Below, in pieces: positions 4,165 to 18,584 of a stretch of DNA of 64,000 nucleotides. The first letter of the stretch is position 1. Every line of letters begins with the position of its first letter. The stretch spans positions 15,745 to 79,744 of the forward strand of contig JALUTT010000171.1 in assembly GCA_027021705.1 (NCBI GenBank). The letters are read 5' to 3'. Source of the stretch: Anaerolineae bacterium (GTDB lineage: Bacteria; Chloroflexota; Anaerolineae; S140-20). The translations under genes were made by a program, and so were the position numbers. Below the pieces are notes generated by a model. That model searched no databases. It worked only from the letters and a program-made list of their open reading frames with translations, and had not been told where the DNA came from.

Positions 4165-4809
4165 TCACAGTTCCGGGTAGGGAACCAGGGTGATCTCCTT
4201 TTCCAGGGGTCGAAGTCGGGCTTCTATCCAGTGGACGCGCCGACACTGCACGGCCACCAGCACCCGGCAGCCCGGGTCCCGGCGCACCGCCCACAGCAAT
4301 CGCTCCAAGATGCGAGAGTTGGTCGCCTCCCAGGCCCGCCGTCCGGGCTCACCGGCCACAGCCGCCTCTACGGCGCAGACCAACTCACATAGGTGGCTGA
4401 AGAGGGGGCTGTTCACCCCCTCCGGGCCATCGGCGATGCGCTGCAGTCCGGTCAGCAGGCGGTCGGCACCCCGCACCAGGCCGGCCCGCAGCCGTGCCAG
4501 TCCTCTACCCTCCGGGGGGACCAACTCTCCAGGAGAAGGGCTGCCCAGGGGGACGATCACCGTGTCCGTGCGACGGGCCGCCGGCACCAGCCCCTCCCGC
4601 ACTTCCAGCGGCGCACCGCTCAGGTCGCCCTGCTCCCAGGCCTCCGGCTCCACCTCCACGCCCAGCAGATCGGGCTCCAGCGTCTCCACCAGCCCGCGCA
4701 GGCAGGCCAGGTCGTAGCGCAGCGCTTCGGTGTGCAGGTGCCCCAGGGTGCCCAGCAGGGCCAGGCGGGTCTTCGGTCTATCCCCAGACTTGGGCAAAAG
4801 GTGGTCCAT
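4165..4809 (-). CDS. Hypothetical protein (possible TraB/Tiki-like metalloprotein fold)
   Basis: 214 aa with an AGGAGA RBS. The motifs GTLGHLH, PDLLGVE and RVLVAVQCRRVH resemble the TraB/EreA-type superfamily. Confidence 0.6.
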   Translation of the reverse strand: MDHLLPKSGDRPKTRLALLGTLGHLHTEALRYDLACLRGLVETLEPDLLGVEVEPEAWEQGDLSGAPLEVREGLVPAARRTDTVIVPLGSPSPGELVPPEGRGLARLRAGLVRGADRLLTGLQRIADGPEGVNSPLFSHLCELVCAVEAAVAGEPGRRAWEATNSRILERLLWAVRRDPGCRVLVAVQCRRVHWIEARLRPLEKEITLVPYPEL

Positions 4810-4903: not shown

Positions 4904-5839
4904 CTACTTCCATCCACACGCACACAGCACACGATCCACCACCCCCCGGCGTTTGCCCCTCTGGTGCCGCCGAGCAGCCGTGTCCAGCAAACGGGTCCGG
5001 ATGAGCTGTCCTGTCAGGTCCACCAAGGTGACCAGCAACAGAGTGATCAGGATGAGGGTGGACAGGTCCTGGTACTGGAACAGCTTGAGCTTGTAGATCA
5101 GTTGCGTACCGATGCCCCCGGCCCCGACGAAGCCCAGCACTGTGGCGGCCCGCATGTTGCACTCCCATCGGAAGAGGGTGTAGGAGAGGAGCATAGGCAG
5201 GGCCGTCGGGACCTGGACGTAGGCCAACACCTGGACGTCGTTGGCTCCCGCGGCTCGGGCGTTCTCCACCAGCCGCTGGTCCACGGCTTCGAAGAGCTCG
5301 GCGTAGAGCTTGCCCAGGATGCCGGCGCTGTGGGCGGCCAGGGCCAGCACCCCCGGGAGGGGGCCCAGCCCCACGGCCACCACGAAGATCAGCGCCCACA
5401 CCAGCTCCGGGATGCCTCGCAACACGTTCAGCAGGCCACGGGTCAGGTAGTACAACAGCCAGCGCGCCCCCCAGGACAGGGTGCCTTGCGCCCGTCGCGA
5501 GGTTTCCTCGCCCCGGCGTCGGGCGGCCAGCAACGAGAGGGGGAACCCCACCACCACGGCCAATGCTGTGCCCAAGAGCGAAATCTCCACCGTCTCCAGG
5601 GCGTAGCCCAACGTGCTGCGCAGGTAGGCGGGATCCAGGTTGGGTGGGAGGAGCCCGACGGCGAACTCCCGTACTGCCCGCCCTGTGCCCGGGCTGAGGA
5701 AGGCCCCCGGGGAGAACCCTGTGCCCCATGCACTGAGAAGCAGGGATGCCAGGATCGCTCCGGCCAGGATCAGGTTGAACGGGCTAAACCCGGGGCTCGA
5801 ATACGGTGCGCTCGAAAGCCGGCGCTCGCCCGTGGTCAT
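4904..5839 (-). CDS. phnE: PhnE/PtxC-family ABC permease
   Basis: RGIPELVWALIFVVAVGLGP, GILGKLYAE and RWECNMRAATVLGFVGAGGIG motifs. Confidence 0.9.
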   Translation of the reverse strand: MTTGERRLSSAPYSSPGFSPFNLILAGAILASLLLSAWGTGFSPGAFLSPGTGRAVREFAVGLLPPNLDPAYLRSTLGYALETVEISLLGTALAVVVGFPLSLLAARRRGEETSRRAQGTLSWGARWLLYYLTRGLLNVLRGIPELVWALIFVVAVGLGPLPGVLALAAHSAGILGKLYAELFEAVDQRLVENARAAGANDVQVLAYVQVPTALPMLLSYTLFRWECNMRAATVLGFVGAGGIGTQLIYKLKLFQYQDLSTLILITLLLVTLVDLTGQLIRTRLLDTAARRHQRGKRRGVVDRVLCACGWK

Positions 5840-6581
5840 CACGCACCTCCTCCTCGGTCCGATAGATCTCCAATCCCTCAATCTCCTTCGGGGGACCGTC
5901 GTACACCAGACGACCGCCGTTCAGGCCCAACAGGCGGGTGCAGTAGGCTAGGGCGAAGTCCACCTGATGCAGGCTCAGCACTACGGTCTTCCCCTGTTGG
6001 TGGAGCTCCCGCAGCACCTCGAGCACCGTCTCGGCGGTGCGCACGTCCACGGAGGCCACCGGTTCGTCGGCCAGGATGAGGGATGCCCCCTGCACCAGAG
6101 CCCGTGCCACGGCCACCCGCTGCTGCTGACCACCGCTCAGCGCTTCGGCGCGGGTGAACAGCTCCTCGGCCAATCCCACCCACGCCAGCGCCCGGTATGC
6201 CCGCTGCACTTCCTCAGGGGGTGTGCGGGCCAAGGCCAGCAGGCTGCGCCCGGTAGATAGGTGTCCCAGACGGCCGATGAGCACGTTGTGGAGCACGGAC
6301 AGGTTGGGGATGACGTGGTGGCTCTGGGAGATGACGGCCACCCGTCGCCGTAGCCGCCGCAGGGCCGCCGGGGAGAGCTGCCCCATAGGGTTCCCCAGCA
6401 CCTCCAGGCGACCGGCGGTGGGCTGCAGGGCCCCGTAGAGGAGCCGCAGGAAGGTGGTCTTCCCCGCTCCGCTGGGGCCCAGCAGCCCTACCATCTCACC
6501 GGGCCGGATCACCACCGTCACGCCCTGCAGGGCCAGGGTGCCGTCGGCGTAACGCTTGGTGAGGTCCTCGGCCCGGATCAT
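5784..6581 (-). CDS. phnC: PhnC/PtxA-family ABC ATP-binding protein
   Basis: GPSGAGKT, NVLIGRLG, LSGGQQQRVAVARAL and ILADEPVASVD. Confidence 0.92.
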   Translation of the reverse strand: MIRAEDLTKRYADGTLALQGVTVVIRPGEMVGLLGPSGAGKTTFLRLLYGALQPTAGRLEVLGNPMGQLSPAALRRLRRRVAVISQSHHVIPNLSVLHNVLIGRLGHLSTGRSLLALARTPPEEVQRAYRALAWVGLAEELFTRAEALSGGQQQRVAVARALVQGASLILADEPVASVDVRTAETVLEVLRELHQQGKTVVLSLHQVDFALAYCTRLLGLNGGRLVYDGPPKEIEGLEIYRTEEEVRDDHGRAPAFERTVFEPRV

Positions 6582-7465
6582 TCCGTCCCGCCTCCTGCCA
6601 GTCCTAGCCTCTCGGCGATCTGTCGGATCTCTTCGTAGTCGGCAGCCGAGGCGCGCACGAATCCCTCGGCCACGGTGGGGGGCAGCACGTCCGACGGTGC
6701 TTCCAGGAAAGCTTGGACCAGCTTGTCCTCAATCTCCTGGGGGATGTCGTCTCGGATGACCCAGGGGTACTGGGGGATGGGATCGGAGCGCCAGATGATC
6801 TTGAGGCGATCTTCGGCGACCAGTCCCTGGCGGATCATCTCCTGGAGCACCGGCTCTTCCACGGCCCCGGCTTCCACTTTGCCGTTGTAGACGGCCAGCA
6901 CGGTGGCGTTGTGGGCTCCGGTGTAGAGGGGCGGGCCTTCGAAATCCTTCTGCGGGTCTATCCCTGCCTCCAGCAGTGCCTGGGTGGGGATCAGATGGCC
7001 GGAGGTGGAACTGATGTCTCCGAAGGCGAAGGTGCGTCCCTTGAGGTCGGTCAGCGTTGTGATGGGGGAGTCCTTCAGGGTGATGATCACACTGTGGTAG
7101 GTATCCGAGCCGGCGATGATCGCCTTGGCAAAGGGGTGAAGGCGGACCTTCTTCGAGGCTTGAACGTAGCTCAGGGCACCGAAGTAGGCCACGTCAATGC
7201 GCCCGGCAGCCATGGCCTCCACCACGGCCGTGTAGTCGGTGGGCACGACCAGTTCGATCTGCAACCCGGTCTTCTCCTCCAGGTACTTCTGGAAGGGCTG
7301 CAGATACGCCTGGGTCTTCTCAGGGCTCTCCTTGGGCACAGCGCCGATGCGCACCACCGGGGATGCAGAAATGGGGCCTTTACCACAGGCGCTCGACAAC
7401 AAGGCGATCCCCAGGGCCAGCGCCACAGCCCACAGGATACGGCGGGAGAACAGACGGGATTTCAT
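6578..7465 (-). CDS. phnD: PhnD/PtxB-family substrate-binding lipoprotein (candidate selenium oxyanion binder)
   Basis: Start MKSRLF with RBS GAAAGGAGG, lipobox LSSAC, and TDYTAVVEAM, STSGHLIP and GAHNA motifs. Confidence 0.9.
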   Translation of the reverse strand: MKSRLFSRRILWAVALALGIALLSSACGKGPISASPVVRIGAVPKESPEKTQAYLQPFQKYLEEKTGLQIELVVPTDYTAVVEAMAAGRIDVAYFGALSYVQASKKVRLHPFAKAIIAGSDTYHSVIITLKDSPITTLTDLKGRTFAFGDISSTSGHLIPTQALLEAGIDPQKDFEGPPLYTGAHNATVLAVYNGKVEAGAVEEPVLQEMIRQGLVAEDRLKIIWRSDPIPQYPWVIRDDIPQEIEDKLVQAFLEAPSDVLPPTVAEGFVRASAADYEEIRQIAERLGLAGGGTE

Positions 7466-7565
7466 GACCTGCCTCCTTTCCTGAAGATGGTCGGCCTCTG
7501 GCCGAGCCGCTCCCCGGAGAGGAGGCAAGGTCACTCACCCCTGAGGGTGGCTATGCCTCCCGGCC
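7466..7565 (-). promoter_or_regulatory. RBS-sequestering switch upstream of phnD
   Basis: 7516-7532 (GACCUUGCCUCCUCUCC) is complementary to the phnD SD region 7466-7481 (GGAAAGGAGGCAGGUC), and alternatively to GGGAGGCA within 7553-7565. Confidence 0.7.
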
Positions 7566-7684
7566 GAGGTGAGCGGCAACGGCCGGACTGTCCGGTTGTC
7601 TTTCTGATACAACACGTGTATCACCAGGACCTTTCAGCCCGTTCAGCGGTGATGGACGGGCCGAGGCATGAACTCGGACCGCAT
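7535..7684 (-). CDS. Putative selenocysteine-containing leader peptide, 49 aa: MRSEFMPRPVHHR-U-TG-U-KVLVIHVLYQKDNRTVRPLPLTSAGRHSHPQG*
   Basis: Strong RBS AAAGGAGGTGA before the ATG at 7684. In-frame TGA at codons 14 (7643-7645), 17 (7634-7636) and 50 (7535-7537). A SECIS-like hairpin starts 10 nt after the second TGA. Confidence 0.65.
7605..7623 (-). promoter_or_regulatory. SECIS-like hairpin of the leader peptide
   Basis: mRNA UGAUACA-CGUGU-UGUAUCA: perfect 7-bp stem, G at loop position 2, loop 17 nt after UGA17 and 26 nt after UGA14. Confidence 0.6.
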
Positions 7685-7736
7685 GCCCCTCACCTCCTTT
7701 CAATGAGACTCAACGAGACGGATCGGTGTGCGAGCT

Positions 7737-7764
7737 ATTATCGCGAATTCCGTTTTCTTGTCAA
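7737..7764 (-). promoter_or_regulatory. Sigma70-type promoter of the leader-phnDCE transcript
   Basis: TTGACA-16 nt-GATAAT. Confidence 0.65.
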
Positions 7765-7810
7765 GAAAGCGGCTATTGGGTGATTCCCCACAAGTGGGGC
7801 AACGGGAAAG

Positions 7811-8494
7811 CTACGGCTTTCCGCCCGCTGGGATCTCCACCCACCCCCGTTGCACGGCCAGCACCGCTGCTTCGGTGCGGGAGCGTACCCCCAGCTTACC
7901 GTAGATGCTGGCCAGGTGGTTCTCCACGGTCCGCACGCTTAGGTACAGGTGCTGAGCGATCTCCTTGTTGCTCAGGCCGTGGCACACCAGGGTGAGGATC
8001 TCCCGCTCGCGGGGCGTCAGGCATCCGTGGGGGCCGGTGGACAAAGGCTGCGCTTGGGCCAGGTGCGCGATGAGGTCCTGGGCCAGGTCCGGGGAGAGCA
8101 CCATCTCGCCTCGGGCAGCCTGGCGCAGGGCGATCGCCAGTTCGTCGGTGGTGATGTCGGCGGAGAGGCAACCGATGGCTCCGGCTTGCAAGGTCGCCAG
8201 GGCCTGGTGCAGAGACCAGGCGAGGGAAAGGGAGAGCACCCTCACCCGAGGGTGCTCTCGCAGGAATGTGGGCAATCGCTCCAGGTCAGCGGCTCGAGGG
8301 CAGGTCAGAAGCACCAGATCCGATTTCTCCTCAAGCGAAGGGGCGGTCAGCGCGGCCAGGTCCTCCGCCTGTCCGATGGGCTCGATGCCCGGGAGCCCGG
8401 CCATCAGGGCCGAGAGGGCTTCCCCCAGCAGCCTATGCGGACTGACGAGGAGCACCCGTATGGGATTGGAGCGGCAAGACCCGGCCTCGCTCAT
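7811..8494 (-). CDS. NarL/LuxR-family regulator with an atypical receiver domain
   Basis: C-terminal LTPREREIL...SNKEIAQHLYLSVRTVENHLASIYGKLG helix-turn-helix. The receiver lacks the acidic pair (VLLVSPH) and the phospho-Asp (DLVLLT). Confidence 0.9.
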   Translation of the reverse strand: MSEAGSCRSNPIRVLLVSPHRLLGEALSALMAGLPGIEPIGQAEDLAALTAPSLEEKSDLVLLTCPRAADLERLPTFLREHPRVRVLSLSLAWSLHQALATLQAGAIGCLSADITTDELAIALRQAARGEMVLSPDLAQDLIAHLAQAQPLSTGPHGCLTPREREILTLVCHGLSNKEIAQHLYLSVRTVENHLASIYGKLGVRSRTEAAVLAVQRGWVEIPAGGKP

Positions 8495-10893: not shown

Positions 10894-11394
10894 TTAGAGG
10901 GGAGTGCGGCGGCGACCGAGGAGCAGTGTGCCTAGGAGGGTGATCCCCGCCATGCCAGCCCAGAAGAGGAGCAGAAACGGGTTGGGGTGTCTACGGTACA
11001 GACGCCGGTAGGTTCGACCGGCCCGGCCTGCCACGTAGCTCTCGGCGGCCAGTTCCCAGGCCGCCTGGTGGACGAGGAGAGCGGCGGCGAGGCGCACCAG
11101 CCGCTTTCCCAGCGGACGCGGCCTCGACGCCGGTCCGTGTCGCCACAGCCAGAGGACGTGGGCAACGGCCAGCGGCAGCGTCTGAAGGTGTCCCAGCTCG
11201 TGCCAGTAGCTGAGGCGGTATCGCTCCTCCTGGGGTAGCCCACGCCGGATGAAGAGGTTGACCAGGGGAGGGTGGGGCAGCGGGAATGACCCCACCCTCA
11301 CCAGATGCCAGTAGTCACCTTCGATCACGATCTCGCCCGGCAGGCCGTACCAGGTGCGCACCTGGCGGGAGAGTCCTTCCGCGTCCTCACTCAC
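10894..11394 (-). CDS. Membrane protein with an HExxH motif (possible metallopeptidase)
   Basis: WHELGHLQT plus a downstream WELAAE and hydrophobic segments. Its start overlaps the dsbA-like stop. Confidence 0.7.
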   Translation of the reverse strand: MSEDAEGLSRQVRTWYGLPGEIVIEGDYWHLVRVGSFPLPHPPLVNLFIRRGLPQEERYRLSYWHELGHLQTLPLAVAHVLWLWRHGPASRPRPLGKRLVRLAAALLVHQAAWELAAESYVAGRAGRTYRRLYRRHPNPFLLLFWAGMAGITLLGTLLLGRRRTPL

Positions 11395-12190
11395 GAGTTG
11401 CCTCCAACTCTGCTTCGATCATCTGCTGGAAAGCTTCGAAGGGTTGAGCGCCCACGAGGGGCTTGCCGTTGATCAGGAAGGTGGGAGTGCCCCTCACGCC
11501 CAGGGATCGGGCGATGGACGTCTCCGAACGCACGATGGAAGTGTACCGACCGGAGTCCAAGCAGGTCTCGAACGCCTCGCGGTCCAACCCCAGCTCGGTG
11601 GCGAACTGTTTCAGGTTCTCCCGGCTGAAAGCCCCCTGGTTCTCACCGGCCTGGCGCTCGAAGAGCAGGTCGTGATAGGCCCAGAAAGCCCCTTGCTCGG
11701 CGGCACATTCGGTCGCCTCGGCGGCCCACTGGGACTCCGGCCCCAGGAAGGCGAAGTGCCAGTAGCCGAAACGGACCTCTCCCGTTTGCACGTAGACCTG
11801 GTCAATCTGACGCCCCGCGTCAGCGGCGAATCGCCCGCAGAAGGGTCACTGGAAGTCGCCAAACTCGATGATGGTCACGGGAGCGTTGGGGTTCCCTTTG
11901 AAGTGGCGCACCCGGGCGGTCAGGTCTTCCAACGAGCCTGGCAGGCTCGCCGGGTTGACGGGTGTGGGGTCGAGGCTGGCCGGCGGAGGATCGGCGTCCT
12001 GGGCCGAGGCGGCCGGGGAGCCGAAGAGGGATCGCGGCGTCACCAGCGGGCGTACCCCGTAGCCGATCAGCACGCCGATCACCAGCCCGACGGCGAGCAT
12101 GGCCAACGGATTGGTCCAGATCGGGGATGAGGAGGCCGGAGACGGCGCCTCATCCGACTGCTGTTGGGGCAGAAACGGCTCTCTCTCCAT
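11387..12190 (-). CDS. DsbA/thioredoxin-like selenoprotein (U-P-F-C), 267 aa with UGA readthrough
   Basis: The ORF track pieces 11846-12190 and 11387-11791 are in one frame, joined by TGA at 11846-11848: VTIIEFGDFQ-U-PFCGRF...GVRGTPTFLING. N-terminal TM anchor. Hairpin CUGACGC-GGG-GCGUCAG at 11807-11823. Confidence 0.9.
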
Positions 12191-14000: not shown

Positions 14001-14291
14001 TCAGACGGGCTCCCGCAGGTATCCCCCGGCCTGCAGCAGCCTGCGAACGTGGTGGCTGTTGACGCCGAAGCCGATCAGCACCTCGCCGTCAATGACGAGT
14101 GTAGGGGTGATGAAGCGACCGGCCAGGCTCTTGAGTTCGTCCATGTAGAGGGGGTTGGTGGTGACATCCTTCTCGGTGAAGGGGATGTTGTGCCGGGCGA
14201 AGAACCTCTTCGCCGCCTGGCAGTCGCCTCACGTGGGCTGGGTGTAGAGGACGACGCCTCTGGGTCTGCGGTGGAAGAGTCGGCGAAACAT
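14001..14291 (-). CDS. Glutaredoxin/NrdH-like selenoprotein (U-G-D-C), 96 aa; absent from the ORF track
   Basis: AAGGAG RBS, then MFRRLFHRRPRGVVLYTQPT-U-GDCQAAKRFFARHNIPFTEKDV...ITPTLVIDGEVLIGF. TGA at 14229-14231 is followed by the stem GGCGAAGA-GGU-UCUUCGCC, loop 22 nt downstream. Confidence 0.9.
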
Positions 14292-14747: not shown

Positions 14748-16847
14748 CTACTCAGCCTCGGCCGCCGCCGGCCTCGGCACCCCGCAGAACTGGTGGTAGT
14801 CAATGAGCTCCGTCACCGTGGGGTTCTCGCCGCAGACGGGGCAGTCGGGCGCGGGGGGCACCGAGACCTCCATGAACTCGCCGTCGAGGGCGTCGTAGAG
14901 GAGCAGCCGCCCGATCAGCGGTTCGCCGATCCCCAGGATGATCTTGATGGCCTCCATAGCCTGGAGGCTGCCCATGATGCCGGGCAGGACCCCCAGGACG
15001 CCGGCCTCGGCGCAACTGGGCACCAGCCCCGGCGGGGGCGGCTCCGGGAAGAGGCAGCGGTAGCACGGCCCTCCCCGGGCCGGGTCGAAGACGGTCAACT
15101 GCCCCTCGAAGCGGAAGATGCTGGCGTCCACCAGCGGCTTCCCCAGCATCACGCAGGCGTCGTTCACCAGGTAGCGGGTGGGGAAGTTGTCGGAGCCGTT
15201 GATCACCACATCGTAGTCGCGCAGCACCTCGAAGGCGTTGGAGGAGTCCAGCAGCAGGTGATGGCCGACGACCTCGACATCGGGGTTGATGCTGTGCAGG
15301 GTCTCGGCTGCCGACTCCACCTTGGGCCGACCGATGTCCTCGGTCTTGTGGAGGATCTGGCGCTGCAGGTTGCTCAGGTCCACCACGTCGTGGTCCACGA
15401 TGCCGATGGTGCCCACGCCCGCCGCCGCCAGGTAGAAGGCGGCCGGCGACCCCAAGCCACCCGCGCCGATGATCACGGCCTTGGCCTCCAGGAGCTTGAT
15501 CTGCCCCGCTTCGCCCACCTCGGGCAGGAGGAAGTGGCGGCTGTAGCGCACCCGCTGGGTGTCGGTGAGGACCTTGGGGATGACGAAGGGGAAGCCGGCC
15601 GACTTCCAAGCCTGGAAGCCGCCGACCAGTGACTCCACCCGCGTGTACCCCATCTGGCGCAGGGCGAGGGCGCCAAGGGCGGAGCGCACCCCACCGGCGC
15701 AGTAGACGACGATGGGCGCATCCCGGTCCGACACCAGCTCCTCGATGCGCAGCTCCAGGAAGCCGCGCGGGATGAAGTGGGCACCGGGGATGTGGCCCTG
15801 CTCCCACTCGTCCCGCTCCCGGATGTCCACCAGGTGAACGGGCTCACCGGCGTCCAGCCGGCGCTTCAGGGTGTGCACGTCCACCTCGGCGATCTGGCTG
15901 CGGGCCAGGGCCACCACCTCGTCGCGGGAGCGGCGCTTGAACTGGCCGTTGTCGGCGACGACCACCGCCCGTGGGGCGGGGGTGGCAGGCAGGCCGCAGG
16001 GGCCGACGGCCCCCTCGCCGGCCGGCACCTGCTCCCGAGCTTGGCCTTCGATGGGCAGGTCGGTCCGGCGGCTCCACTCAGCCCACGACCCCTCGTAGTT
16101 GCGCACCCGAGGGTAGCCCAGCCAGCGCAGGACCAGGTAGGTGTGGGAGGAGCGGGCACCCGTCTCACAGTAGACGACGATCTCCCGGTCCGGCGTGATC
16201 CCCCGTTCCTGGAAGAGGCGGTGCAGCTCCTCGGCGGGCCGGAGGGCGGGTGGTGCGGTGTCGGCCAGGACACTGTCGTAGGGGAGGTGGACCGCGCCGG
16301 GCAGCCGGCCGCTCTCGAACTCGGCCTCCGTCCGCACGTCCAGGAGGACGATGTCGGGATGGCCCAGGTGGGCGGCGATCCAGTTGGCCGTGGCCAGCTT
16401 GCTGCTCTCCGGTTCAGCGGCGTAGAGGGCCGGCTCCGGCGTGACCGTCTCGGTGCTCACCTCCCCGCCGGCCTCTTCCCAGGCTTCCCAGCCCCCCTCG
16501 AGGATGTACACCTTGGCGTGGCCGTAGTAGTCCAGGAGCCAGGCGAACTGGGCGGCCAGGGGGCCGAAGCCCTCGTCGTAGATGACGACCGGGGTCTCGC
16601 GGGTCAGCCCCAGGCGGCCCAGCACCTCCTCGGCGGCCGACTGGCCGACCAGCCGTCCGGGCACCCCGTTGACGGTGGTGAAGAGTTCCTGGAGGTCCAG
16701 GGAGACCGCTCCCGGCACGTGGCCGTAGGGGTAACCCAGTTCCAGGTCCGGTAGGGTGACGCGGAGGTCCACGATCCGTATCTCCGGGTCCGCCAGGCGG
16801 TCCTGCAGCCACGCCGCGTCCACCAGGTGGATGGGCCGCTTGGTCAT
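14748..16847 (-). CDS. moeB: Triple-rhodanese-MoeB/ThiF fusion (sulfurtransferase-adenylyltransferase)
   Basis: Tandem rhodanese (GHVPGAV, YCETGARS, YEGSWAEW), a third rhodanese (GHIPGA, YCAGGVRS), then MoeB (RYSRH, GAGGLG, SNLQRQ, CYRC, SCAEAGVLG, CPVC). Confidence 0.9.
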   Translation of the reverse strand: MTKRPIHLVDAAWLQDRLADPEIRIVDLRVTLPDLELGYPYGHVPGAVSLDLQELFTTVNGVPGRLVGQSAAEEVLGRLGLTRETPVVIYDEGFGPLAAQFAWLLDYYGHAKVYILEGGWEAWEEAGGEVSTETVTPEPALYAAEPESSKLATANWIAAHLGHPDIVLLDVRTEAEFESGRLPGAVHLPYDSVLADTAPPALRPAEELHRLFQERGITPDREIVVYCETGARSSHTYLVLRWLGYPRVRNYEGSWAEWSRRTDLPIEGQAREQVPAGEGAVGPCGLPATPAPRAVVVADNGQFKRRSRDEVVALARSQIAEVDVHTLKRRLDAGEPVHLVDIRERDEWEQGHIPGAHFIPRGFLELRIEELVSDRDAPIVVYCAGGVRSALGALALRQMGYTRVESLVGGFQAWKSAGFPFVIPKVLTDTQRVRYSRHFLLPEVGEAGQIKLLEAKAVIIGAGGLGSPAAFYLAAAGVGTIGIVDHDVVDLSNLQRQILHKTEDIGRPKVESAAETLHSINPDVEVVGHHLLLDSSNAFEVLRDYDVVINGSDNFPTRYLVNDACVMLGKPLVDASIFRFEGQLTVFDPARGGPCYRCLFPEPPPPGLVPSCAEAGVLGVLPGIMGSLQAMEAIKIILGIGEPLIGRLLLYDALDGEFMEVSVPPAPDCPVCGENPTVTELIDYHQFCGVPRPAAAEAE

Positions 16848-17068
16848 GATGACACCTCCCGGGTCAGGGTGATGACCCACTCAGGGTTTCCCGTCTGCTC
16901 GATCTTCACGCTGAACCCCCGGCGTCGGGCCTGGGTGGGGATGCTCTCCAGGGCCGGCGCGTGGTCGGTGATCACCTCCAGGACTTCGCCCTCGGGCAGC
17001 CGTTTCATCGCTTCAACCGCTTTGAGCATCGGGTAAGGGCAGATCTCGCCTCGCACGTCCAATCGCAT
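16844..17068 (-). CDS. tusA: TusA/YeeD-family sulfur carrier
   Basis: MRLDVRGEICPYPMLK contains the CPxP motif. GAGGAGG RBS. Confidence 0.9.
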   Translation of the reverse strand: MRLDVRGEICPYPMLKAVEAMKRLPEGEVLEVITDHAPALESIPTQARRRGFSVKIEQTGNPEWVITLTREVSS

Positions 17069-17090
17069 CGTCTTCCTCCTCATTGTGGTT

Positions 17091-18584
17091 TCAGGGTAGT
17101 CGTCGGATGATCTGAACGCCGATCCAGGCCCCGCCAACCAGCCCCAGCCCGAAGACCCAGCCGTTGAGGGCCAGGGAGGGGATGGCGGAGAAGAAGCCGC
17201 CGATGTTGCACCCCATGGCCAGGCGAGCGCCGTAGCCCATAAGCAGCCCTCCGCTGAAGGTCTGCAGGTAGCGGTAGCGGCGGCGGGGGAAGCGGAGTTT
17301 GAACTCACCGGCCAAGAGGGCGGCGGTGAAGGCTCCGAAAATGAGCCCCCAGTTCAGCAGCGTGCCGCCACTCAGCCAGGGGATATGGCTCAGCAGTTCC
17401 TTGCCGGCCGGCTTGTCACCGAAGTAGAGCAGGTTCTGGGCCGGATAGCCCAGGGTGTAGGCGACCCATCCCGCCCAGCGGGAGACGGCGGTGGTGATCC
17501 CCCACGGCTTTTTGTACAGGTACTCGAAGATGTTGAGCATTCCTAGAGCCAAGCCGCCGGCGGCCGCGGGCCAGGCTCGCACGAAGATCTGCTGCCAGCC
17601 GACGCGCAGGCGGTCGGCGAAGGTGCGGACCGGCCCGGTCGGCTCCTCCCAGGTGGAGATGCCACCGGCCCGGCTCTCCCACCAGACGATCAACAGGTAG
17701 AAGCCGAAGAGGACGATGAGGGTGAGGACAAGGGCGGGGCCCCATCCCAGCGCCCGGGGGAACCAGAACTTGGGCTGTCGGGAGATGACGTTGGGCCACC
17801 ACCACTCCCAGTGTAGGGCCAGGACGAAAGAGCCGGCGATCATCCCCACCAGGGCGACCCACTGAGCCACGTAGCCCTCGCCCATCCGGTAGAGGGTGCC
17901 CGAGGCGCACCCACCGGCGACGACCATCCCGGTGCCGAAAAGCAGGCCCCCCAGCAGGGTGTGCCAGCCGGTGGGGTAGACGTTGCCGGCCATCCCCTGG
18001 GTCGGGTCGGGCACCGCCTTGTACATAATGAGCGTGAAGCCGACGGTGGCAATGGCCAGGCCGACGATCACCCCTTTCATCAGGCGGCCATCCTGGAGCA
18101 GGAAGAGGTCCCGGAAGGCCGAGGTGAAGCAGAAGCGGCTCCGCTGGACCACGAAGCCGAAGGCCAGGCCAAAGGTCCAGAAGATGGCCAGGGAGGTGCT
18201 AATCCGGGCGTAGAAGAGGAGCACCAGCAGTGCCCCCACGGTGGCCAAGAGGCCGTAGAGGATGTGCCGCCGGATGCCGGGCAGGATGGGAAGGGTGGAC
18301 GCTTTGGCCGTCGCCCCACCGGCCACGGCAGGCACCAGGGTGACCTTGTCGTCAGGTTGGAGCGGGGTGGCCAGGCCCTGCAGAGCGCGGGCGTCCTGGC
18401 CGTTGACGAAGAAGCGGACGTAGGGTCGGAGTTGACCGGTCTCGTCCAGCAGGTGGACGCGGAGGTCAGGGAACCGCTCGCTCACCTCTGCGACGAGAGC
18501 GCCCAGCTCGTCGGCGGTGACCTCCACCTGGGCCTGACCTTCGGTCATCCGACGCAGGAATGTGGGAAAGTACAAGGTTGCCAT
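17091..18584 (-). CDS. MoaD/ThiS ubiquitin-like domain fused to a YeeE/YedE sulfur (thiosulfate/selenium) transporter
   Basis: Residues 1-90 end in FVNGQD...PAVAGG. The rest has the three YeeE Cys motifs QRSRFCF, AGGCASG and AMGCNIG. Confidence 0.88.
   Translation of the reverse strand: MATLYFPTFLRRMTEGQAQVEVTADELGALVAEVSERFPDLRVHLLDETGQLRPYVRFFVNGQDARALQGLATPLQPDDKVTLVPAVAGGATAKASTLPILPGIRRHILYGLLATVGALLVLLFYARISTSLAIFWTFGLAFGFVVQRSRFCFTSAFRDLFLLQDGRLMKGVIVGLAIATVGFTLIMYKAVPDPTQGMAGNVYPTGWHTLLGGLLFGTGMVVAGGCASGTLYRMGEGYVAQWVALVGMIAGSFVLALHWEWWWPNVISRQPKFWFPRALGWGPALVLTLIVLFGFYLLIVWWESRAGGISTWEEPTGPVRTFADRLRVGWQQIFVRAWPAAAGGLALGMLNIFEYLYKKPWGITTAVSRWAGWVAYTLGYPAQNLLYFGDKPAGKELLSHIPWLSGGTLLNWGLIFGAFTAALLAGEFKLRFPRRRYRYLQTFSGGLLMGYGARLAMGCNIGGFFSAIPSLALNGWVFGLGLVGGAWIGVQIIRRLP

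Follow-up and report, generated by a model that had tools for sequence, protein, structure and literature searches.

A conserved two-state RNA leader before a phnDCE-like importer operon in Chloroflexota and its possible control by selenocysteine recoding

The question raised by this locus is how the leader of about 265 nt that precedes a phnDCE-like importer operon could control the translation of the importer. The operon lies in a stretch of 64,000 nucleotides from an Anaerolineae bacterium (assembly GCA_027021705.1, contig JALUTT010000171.1), hereafter the window, and an earlier note, made from the letters alone, had read the leader as an attenuator that senses selenocysteine (Sec) through in-frame UGA codons of a short upstream open reading frame (uORF). 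Judged from its sequence, the leader is a conserved translational switch, predicted to sequester or to free the Shine-Dalgarno (SD) sequence of the phnD-like gene according to whether its segment C pairs with that SD (segment D) or with a segment B. That Sec decoding by SelB governs this switch is the best single explanation of the locus, and we hold it tentatively, as a reading that comes close to an even call. All leader features were read on the minus strand of the window. The comparative statements on the leader rest on one ortholog, the locus L025 of a Chloroflexota metagenome-assembled genome (G061; the genome of the window is G000), and on one close strain, found on contigs from three other vent metagenome runs, which differs at 28 of about 1190 bases (about 97.6% identity).

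We investigated the layout of the leader (Table 1). The promoter proposed in the earlier note is present, is Sigma-70-like, matches 11 of 12 positions and is the sole promoter-like site between 7300 and 8000, where shuffled sequences give 0.2. It is not conserved in L025, a promoter search of that leader having found 0, and the alignment of the two leaders starts at the uORF SD, the sequence 5' of it being unalignable. The sequence and the spacing of the uORF SD are identical in L025, where the uORF consists of an ATG, 12 sense codons (METGLMLWSMSNG) and UGA, i.e. it has an equal length and an equal stop. In the window the uORF starts 219 nt from the phnD-like ATG at 7465, and reading the minus strand bore out a strong ribosome-binding site (RBS) followed by a frame, shared with phnD, that has UGA at codons 14, 17 and 50. 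The leader has therefore a short open reading frame (ORF) with its own RBS, as a leader-peptide attenuator does. UGA50 is the next in-frame stop after readthrough of UGA14 (and UGA17), and it is found 8 nt before segment C, which carries the anti-SD sequence.

Table 1 Coordinates of the leader, of the importer operon and of the other features discussed. Positions are those of the window unless another contig is named.
Feature	Position	Strand	Details
Sigma-70-like promoter	7737..7764	-	TTGACA 7764-7759, 16-nt spacer, GATAAT 7742-7737
uORF Shine-Dalgarno	7701-7693	-	GAAAGGAGG, 8 nt 5' of ATG
uORF	7643..7684	-	ATG 7684, 12 sense codons MRSEFMPRPVHHR, UGA14 at 7645-7643
UGA17, second in-frame UGA	7636-7634	-	in outer helix of hairpin I; TG between UGA14 and UGA17
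UGA50 (QG-UGA)	7537-7535	-	inside conserved GGUGAGUGA
Hairpin I, SECIS-like	7585..7640	-	outer helix 7640-7635/7590-7585; middle helix 7631-7625/7598-7594
Hairpin I, apical part	7623-7605	-	stem 7623-7617/7611-7605, loop CGUGU 7616-7612; UGAUACA-CGUGU-UGUAUCA
Hairpin II, ON fold	7500..7584	-	E (7584-7580, 7576-7568):F (7515-7507, 7504-7500); B (7564-7554):C (7527-7519)
Small hairpin inside hairpin II	7551-7546/7539-7533	-	
Anti-SD core of C, GCCUCCU	7520..7526	-	partner B or phnD SD
phnD-like SD AGGAGGC (segment D) and ATG	7463..7477	-	SD 7477-7471, ATG 7465-7463
phnD-like substrate-binding protein	6578-7465	-	Pfam Phosphonate-bd, E = 4.8e-74
phnC-like ATPase	5784-6581	-	Pfam and NCBIfam
phnE-like permease (start uncertain)	4904-5881	-	Pfam and NCBIfam; PhnE score 240.2, cut-off 216.7
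phnDCE-like operon, whole	4904..7465	-	
DsbA/Thioredoxin_4-like selenoprotein, UPFC	~11390-12130, TGA 11848	-	Thioredoxin_4 1e-35 spanning U
Glutaredoxin-like selenoprotein, UGDC	14001-14291, TGA 14231	-	Glutaredoxin 8.8e-17
Sulfur-carrier cluster	14748-18584	-	ThiS-like domain and YeeE/YedE 'Sulf_transp' fusion; three rhodanese domains fused to ThiF/MoeB
PCYCGC-family protein (PF13798), AAY-U-RIC	L074, G000:C171:11000-15800, TGA C171:12358		just before window
Rhodanese (CT-U-PNEE), two DsbA-like (UPYC; one fused to cyclophilin domain), FlpD/MvhD (AAG-U-LPGDC)	L075-L078, G000 contigs C5, C5, C16, C92		
[NiFe] hydrogenase large subunit	L081, G000:C27:25217-26968	-	Pfam NiFeSe_Hases 1.4e-235; hairpin loop C27:26714

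The two leaders share the blocks CCGGCCGUUGCCGCUC, GGUGAGUGA and GGGAGCGG.UCGGC, and their alignment runs without an indel for 150 nt, starting at the uORF ATG and reaching GGUGAGUGA/UGA50. The differences fall at codon positions one, two and three in the numbers 9/4/5 for the uORF and 12/12/13 for codons 15-49, and the uORF peptide is not conserved in L025. As the differences are spread evenly over the codon positions, what selection maintains is the RNA, together with the presence of the uORF and its length, and not a protein, and the uORF peptide itself is, to judge from the alignment, not under selection. The same counts bear on the reading of the frame as a real small selenoprotein of 49 residues, which the frame of L025, open from UGA14 to UGA50 without indels, would allow. 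The lack of codon-position bias, the radical replacements outside the RNA-conserved blocks and the second UGA of the window leave this reading with next to no credit.

UGA14 is kept in both orthologous leaders and in the strain variant, and UGA17 in one of the two orthologs, being CGG in L025, so that of the conserved UGA-N6-UGA pair expected in the earlier note the first member stands and the second does not. The U of UGA17 occupies alignment column 70, whose pairing with column 117 is formed by U-A in the window and by C-G in L025. Since it lies within a covarying helix pair, UGA17 would seem to be a side effect of covariation. The close strain keeps the hairpin and the two UGAs before it, and differs at only two positions over 7465-7700 (236 nt). 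The first is C>T at 7676, synonymous in uORF codon 3, and the second, G7561A, replaces a G.U pair of helix B:C by A-U, as in L025, and strengthens B:C. Two more differences, at 7714 and 7734, are found between the promoter and the uORF SD.

The consensus structure given by RNAalifold consists of two adjacent long hairpins, I and II, with the phnD SD free; we call it the ON fold. Hairpin I, which resembles a Sec insertion sequence (SECIS), is about 56 nt long and begins 5 nt after UGA14. Each of its 17 pairs is formed in the window and in L025, with 4 changed on both sides, and its apical 17 nt are identical in L025 save for the last loop base (U vs C), the apical stem being perfect with 7 bp in the window and 6 bp in L025. 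In the same way, every one of the 28 pairs of hairpin II is formed in both sequences, and 3 are changed on both sides. Together with a 7-pair helix within the uORF, the hairpins give a fold of 52 pairs, all of which form in both sequences, and 8 pairs are changed on both sides compared to 0-1 in controls with slid 3' partners, a comparison that is inflated by the derivation of the ON structure from the two sequences tested. Another helix joins 7656-7662 to 7636-7642; it reads GGCCCGU:ACGGGCU in the window and GGUCCAU:AUGGGCC in L025, one pair being compensatory. UGA14 lies in the loop that this helix encloses, and its formation competes with that of hairpin I's outer helix.

The single-sequence minimum free energy (MFE) folds of both leaders are different. 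In this OFF fold C pairs with the phnD SD and segment E pairs with the uORF SD (7692-7689 with 7573-7570), and both RBSs are sequestered. The two MFE folds have 25 pairs in common, 3 of them compensatory. The pair at columns 14-136, between the uORF SD and E, changes from U-A in the window to C-G in L025, and C:D presents 7 column-consistent pairs, one of them compensatory. Columns 150 (in B), 181 (in C) and 236 (in D) read G-C-G in the window and A-U-A in L025. Considering that column 181 covaries with both 150 and 236, segment C has two mutually exclusive partners. The alternative pairings B:C and C:D drawn in the earlier note do exist, then, and are kept in L025, where a covariation check on the ortholog leader gave compensatory changes for both folds (one comparison). 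An anti-SD:SD helix and an alternative partner for it, both with covariation, are what a translational SD-sequestering switch presents. No intrinsic terminator was found on the coding strand in the window leader or the L025 leader, which points to translational control and not to a trp-type transcription attenuator; instead of a terminator, it is the hiding of the SD that forms the alternative fold.

Duplex energies were compared with those of 300 shuffles per sequence, the number of shuffles as good being given in brackets. Helix E:F reached −30.4 kcal/mol in the window (1/300) and −26.1 kcal/mol in L025 (0/300), C:D −26.5 (0/300) and −19.1 (5/300), and B:C −16.6 (27/300) and −21.3 (0/300), respectively. 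The pairing of the uORF SD with E gave −23.8 kcal/mol (5/300) and −15.9 kcal/mol (73/300), i.e. it is good in the window and ordinary in L025, so that the pairing of the leader's own RBS and start with 7566-7582, described in the earlier note, is real and kept in L025 in a weaker form. Helix A:B, in which B is paired with a segment A, was proposed there too. It is found in the window (−19.2 kcal/mol, 30/300), and it was rejected as a conserved element as its L025 duplex (−8.1 kcal/mol, 231/300) is no better than shuffles.

These values also bear on a generic coupling of the importer to uORF translation, in which ribosomes on the uORF would free E from the uORF SD, hairpin II would form, the phnD SD would become exposed, and the importer would track translational capacity or the age of the mRNA. 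The compensatory change between the uORF SD and E, the sequestration of both RBSs in the MFE folds and the flip of the MFE fold to B:C when the uORF start of L025 is masked are all consistent with such a coupling. We nevertheless consider it improbable, given that the pairing it relies on is within the range of shuffles in L025 and that it gives no role to the conserved hairpin I, with its SECIS-like loop and spacing.

We then compared hairpin I with the SECIS elements of the hosts. Both genomes, G000 and G061, carry selA, selB, selD and tRNA-Sec, with a Sec-containing selD, as a check of the Sec machinery had been asked to confirm. The two selenoprotein genes that had been noticed near the leader are real, at 4.1 and 6.5 kb from it, with their UGAs inside Pfam matches; ORF lists made with translation table 11 split or miss both the DsbA-like (UPFC) and the glutaredoxin-like (UGDC) gene. 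A verified set of 10 selenoproteins, each with its UGA inside a Pfam or NCBIfam match, was built from a screen for Cys motifs followed by a hairpin descriptor and a coding score. It contains nine proteins of G000 (the DsbA-like and glutaredoxin-like proteins, PCYCGC, SelD, a rhodanese, two further DsbA-like proteins, FlpD and a [NiFe] hydrogenase) and SelD of G061. Screens based on the G+C content of third codon positions and on a strict codon score were dropped, the former as too noisy and the latter for losing known cases. The candidates UPHC (C3) and C49, for which there is no Pfam match, stay outside the verified set, and the descriptor hits on C164 and C99 look spurious.

All 10 verified elements exhibit a stem of 5-8 bp and a pentaloop N-G-(G/U)-N-N, 21-32 nt after the UGA, the loops being CGGGG, AGGUU, CGGGA, GGUUC, CGUGC, CGGAG, UGGAU, UGGAA, CGUGC and CGUGC. 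The hydrogenase presents an N-terminal motif R-I-U-G-V-U, with two UGAs 6 nt apart, and a C-terminal DPCMAC with Cys. A single CGUGC hairpin stands 32 and 23 nt after its two UGAs, and therefore a UGA-N6-UGA arrangement served by one element does occur in G000. The cytochrome-b-like gene that follows suggests a Group 1-type enzyme. Hydrogenases of the UXXU type are described in silico in the available part of PMC13582414, where the N-terminal UXXU is given only for Group 4 hydrogenases.

The perfect 7-bp hairpin with a CGUGU loop that had been pointed out at 7605-7623 is confirmed, the distance to its loop being 26 nt from UGA14 and 17 nt from UGA17. In L025 the loop is CGUGC and its start is likewise 26 nt after UGA14, so the hairpin is conserved in the ortholog with its spacing. 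The UGA14 spacing, the loop and the closing pair are within the range of the 10 verified elements, and the 9-mer CA-CGUGC-UG of the L025 leader is also the 9-mer of the SelD SECIS in the same genome. Both leader loops carry the apical G of bacterial SECIS elements, for which the available parts of PMC13582414 and PMC1794560 give a consensus with G at position one or two within the apical loop.

How often such a hairpin arises by chance was estimated with a descriptor (stem of at least 6 bp, NGKNN pentaloop, 19-34 nt after TGA) that was itself written after the leader had been seen: it matched 9 of 3470 TGA stops of long ORFs (0.26%) and 32 of 20000 random sites (0.16%), and with a CGUGY loop 0 of 3470 and 0 of 20000. 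A looser form (stem of at least 5 bp) is found at 525 TGA sites genome-wide, 5 of which end a short SD-led ORF. The importer leader has the longest stem of these 5; the other 4 are chance-like, inside or antisense to genes. Hairpins with a CGUGY loop number 29 in the genome, including two verified SECIS elements and the importer leader. The exact hairpin motif occurs in G000 only among 401 phylum genomes, and once in that genome; matches with 2 mismatches across the phylum were set aside as noise-like in comparison with a reversed-pattern control.

Read as DNA, the apical part is the palindrome TGATACA-N5-TGTATCA, which could be an operator of a dimeric transcription factor, e.g. the product of the LuxR/NarL-type response regulator gene at 8494-7811, just upstream of the promoter. 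The repeat is a perfect 7+7 palindrome and the regulator gene is directly upstream, as such an operator would have it. The palindrome lies, however, about 110 nt downstream of the predicted transcription start, is conserved in L025, where the regulator gene and the promoter were not found, and is flanked by helices that covary as RNA, which makes an operator very improbable.

A stronger competitor, unlikely in our view and still to be taken seriously, is a riboswitch-like or protein-bound leader independent of Sec, in which a metabolite (e.g. a sulfur-pathway compound) or an RNA-binding protein would select between hairpin II and C:D. Hairpin I or the internal loops of E/F would then be the binding site and the uORF the expression platform, and the likeness to SECIS would be coincidental. 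Blocks of 16-17 nt are conserved in sequence beyond what pairing asks for, and the invariant pairs comprise 7 of 8 in the main E:F helix (E:F has 13 pairs in total) and all 6 apical pairs. In addition, the operon heads a cys cluster in G061, and distant PhnD-like paralogs in the genomes G008 and G009 have a different, pan-motif-like RNA upstream, so RNA control of this transporter family does occur in the class. Against it, the Rfam searches gave no family for the leader, either at E <= 10 or at gathering scores; the two partners of E, the uORF SD and F, can account for its conserved sequence; and the SD-led uORF of fixed length, its UGA and the agreement with the host SECIS elements in loop and spacing are left unexplained. 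In those searches, the region 7000-8300 gave no family match at E <= 10 (4 chance-level matches only), and gathering scores gave 0 matches across the whole window, where the two real SECIS elements were missed too, so that Rfam is weak on SECIS.

Regarding the paralogs, a conserved two-hairpin RNA with a terminator-like hairpin stands 5' of distant PhnD-like genes (33-37% identical) in L023 at 2445-2521 (G008) and in L024 at about 1190-1340 (G009). The L023 RNA resembles the Rfam pan motif RF01749 (31.8 bits, gathering score 36.2, E = 0.033). The known place of this motif is upstream of pantothenate genes, and it is not known to precede transporters of this kind. For the importer leader itself a pan-motif identity was rejected, as there was no match.

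We return to control by Sec. The specific model, possible in our view and not without doubt, is a Sec-recoding attenuator, in which recoding of the uORF UGA by SelB and Sec-tRNASec, through a SECIS mimic, would set the translation of an oxyanion importer (possibly for sulfate, selenate or selenite). In the ON state E:F and B:C would leave the phnD SD free, and in the OFF state C:D would hide it, with E tending to pair with the uORF SD. When Sec-tRNASec is present, a SelB-GTP-Sec-tRNASec complex would sit on hairpin I and UGA14 would be recoded, one such event being needed for readthrough in L025 and two in the window; the readthrough ribosomes would then traverse E and B as far as UGA50, just before C. 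When Sec-tRNASec is absent, ribosomes would go no further than UGA14, and hairpin II would stay intact. The distance that the ribosome travels would in this way decide which fold is formed and whether the importer is translated.

The direction that we prefer is the one in which the importer would be OFF with ample Sec and ON with scarce Sec: readthrough would strip E and B so that C:D forms, and termination at UGA14 would hold the ribosomes on the uORF, leave E free for F and keep hairpin II. We favour it for giving a part to all three conserved partners of C and E, and for the feedback that would follow if the importer brings in selenium. An opposite sign would result if a ribosome terminating at UGA50 covered C and exposed the SD, and a selAB-like effect from SelB binding alone is an alternative. 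Of the Sec-sensing leader first proposed, the switch, the uORF UGA and the SECIS-like hairpin are retained; the conservation of the UGA pair and of helix A:B is not.

Several observations weigh against control by Sec. With n=2 independent leader sequences, every count is one comparison, and the inflated slid controls and the descriptor written after the fact, both mentioned above, belong here as well. The leader stem is AU-rich and weak (−5.2/−3.6 kcal/mol, vs about −6.6 to −11 kcal/mol for real SECIS elements in pentaloop form). UGA is the most frequent stop codon of the genome, whose GC content is 66%. Readthrough in the window would be blocked by UGA17 unless it is recoded too, and its 17-nt spacing falls outside the range of 21-32 nt seen in the verified elements. 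Thermodynamics leaves the switch undecided, as the single-sequence MFE is OFF and the consensus ON, and folds with ribosome masking never opened the phnD RBS, the opening cost being 10-22 kcal/mol in all states. Since selA is found in 155 of 201 sampled Chloroflexota, the Sec machinery of the two hosts is little evidence; the presence of the Sec trait carries no weight and was rejected as uninformative support. Finally, the substrate-binding protein (SBP) scores higher against the PhnD equivalog TIGR03431 (230.1, below the cut-off of 261.1) than against TIGR04553, the 'putative selenate' SBP (191.6, below the cut-off of 250).

The PhnD-like gene downstream of the leader is, as claimed, a real gene. 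The only SBP cut-off that its product passes is that of TIGR01098, a broad phosphate/phosphite/phosphonate subfamily (249.5, cut-off 112). No phn carbon-phosphorus lyase or ptx genes were seen among the scanned window genes (2187-38800), the window beyond 38800 and the flanks of L025 and L072 having been scanned partly. In G061 the operon is followed 3', on the same strand, by genes for a sulfite/nitrite reductase, a phosphoadenosine phosphosulfate (PAPS) reductase, a siroheme synthase and a tetrapyrrole methylase (L072, 6352-10902 of G061:C1), which is an assimilatory sulfate-reduction set. A sulfur- or selenium-oxyanion is, from this gene context, a reasonable guess for the substrate of the importer, no more.

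In the window, the sulfur-carrier cluster includes a TusA-like frame, a candidate picked by eye from the translation only, and a further rhodanese and a thiol peroxidase-like protein are also encoded. YedE-family proteins, one of which is fused in this cluster, are discussed as selenium transporters. A YedE-family protein is listed among selenium-regulated genes in the available part of PMC11097638. Between the permease gene and a double-ATPase DrrA-like ATP-binding cassette protein there is an ORF of 214 residues (4165-4809, minus strand) with a good coding score, for which no Pfam or NCBIfam match was found. No tRNA genes were found in the window.

The phnDCE-like transporter is rare. A scan of genome contigs with PhnD gave L025 only (PhnD 76% identical), and a scan of metagenome contigs gave only the window's own contig. 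Among 60 relatives of G000 (E <= 1e-40) the PhnD search returned nothing beyond two paralog-like matches (33-37%), and it recovered no ortholog from 80 G061 relatives or from samples of the class (400 genomes, E <= 1e-75) and of the phylum (400 genomes, E <= 1e-65). The protein database holds closer relatives, at 60-76% overall (P0002 at 76%, P0004-P0007 at 60-63%), as well as PhnD homologs in Bacillota at roughly 50% identity. The phylum samples took in unpublished genomes, namely G282 in the hairpin-motif scan and probably in the PhnD scan too, and G177, G282 and G310 in the selA tally; these bear only on negative counts and on that tally.

If the Sec reading is true, the locus would provide the first case of a leader peptide in which Sec recoding serves regulation. 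The efficiency of recoding would itself be the regulatory signal, and the Sec-charging state of the cell would feed back on uptake. The RNA part in question is compact (about 220 nt) and lends itself to mutation and testing. The PhnD-family importer, found beside cys genes in one host and beside selenoprotein and sulfur-carrier genes in the other, would become a candidate sulfur/selenium-oxyanion transporter, and the leader a pointer to a dedicated bacterial importer of selenium or of sulfur oxyanions. According to the available part of PMC11097638 (2024), a specific selenium transporter had yet to be identified. Even without a role for Sec, the leader would be an undescribed structured switch with clear covariation.

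Compared with known systems, the importer shares its set of SBP, ATPase and permease with the PhnCDE phosphonate/phosphite importers, from which its SBP is set apart by a score below the PhnD equivalog cut-off, and with the TIGR04553 'putative selenate' transporters, whose cut-off its SBP does not reach either. Like bacterial SECIS elements, the leader has a stem-loop after a UGA, with G as the second base of the loop. In contrast to them, the importer leader lies outside a conserved coding frame, with no codon-position bias, no peptide conservation and no homologous protein known, and its stem is AU-rich and weaker.

Leader-peptide attenuators and translational attenuation (trp, his, ermC, cat) rely on sense codons and usually on a terminator. 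The likeness to them consists in a short leader ORF on which the ribosome position picks between exclusive helices, one of which hides a downstream SD. The differences are that the importer leader would depend on a recoded stop, a hairpin in cis and a special elongation factor (putative), that it has no terminator and that its peptide is not conserved.

Among the open-access full texts searched, no leader uORF turned up in which a SECIS serves regulation or the sensing of Sec supply, selAB of E. coli being the only related case. By analogy, the closest known case to the importer leader is this selAB SECIS-like element: according to the available part of PMC13449736, SelB with Sec-tRNASec represses translation through a SECIS-like element in the selAB 5' untranslated region. 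Both have a SECIS-like hairpin in an mRNA leader, a SelB/GTP/Sec-tRNASec sensor (putative here) and translation initiation as output. In selAB, as described in that part of the source, the hairpin stands 3 nt from the regulated SD, there is no UGA and no second switch, and the Sec machinery itself is controlled. In the importer leader, by contrast, the hairpin, with its end at 7605, stands upstream of the regulated phnD SD, which begins at 7477, by about 130 nt instead of about 3 nt; it follows a uORF UGA by 26 nt, is coupled to a bistable anti-SD switch and precedes the genes of a transporter.

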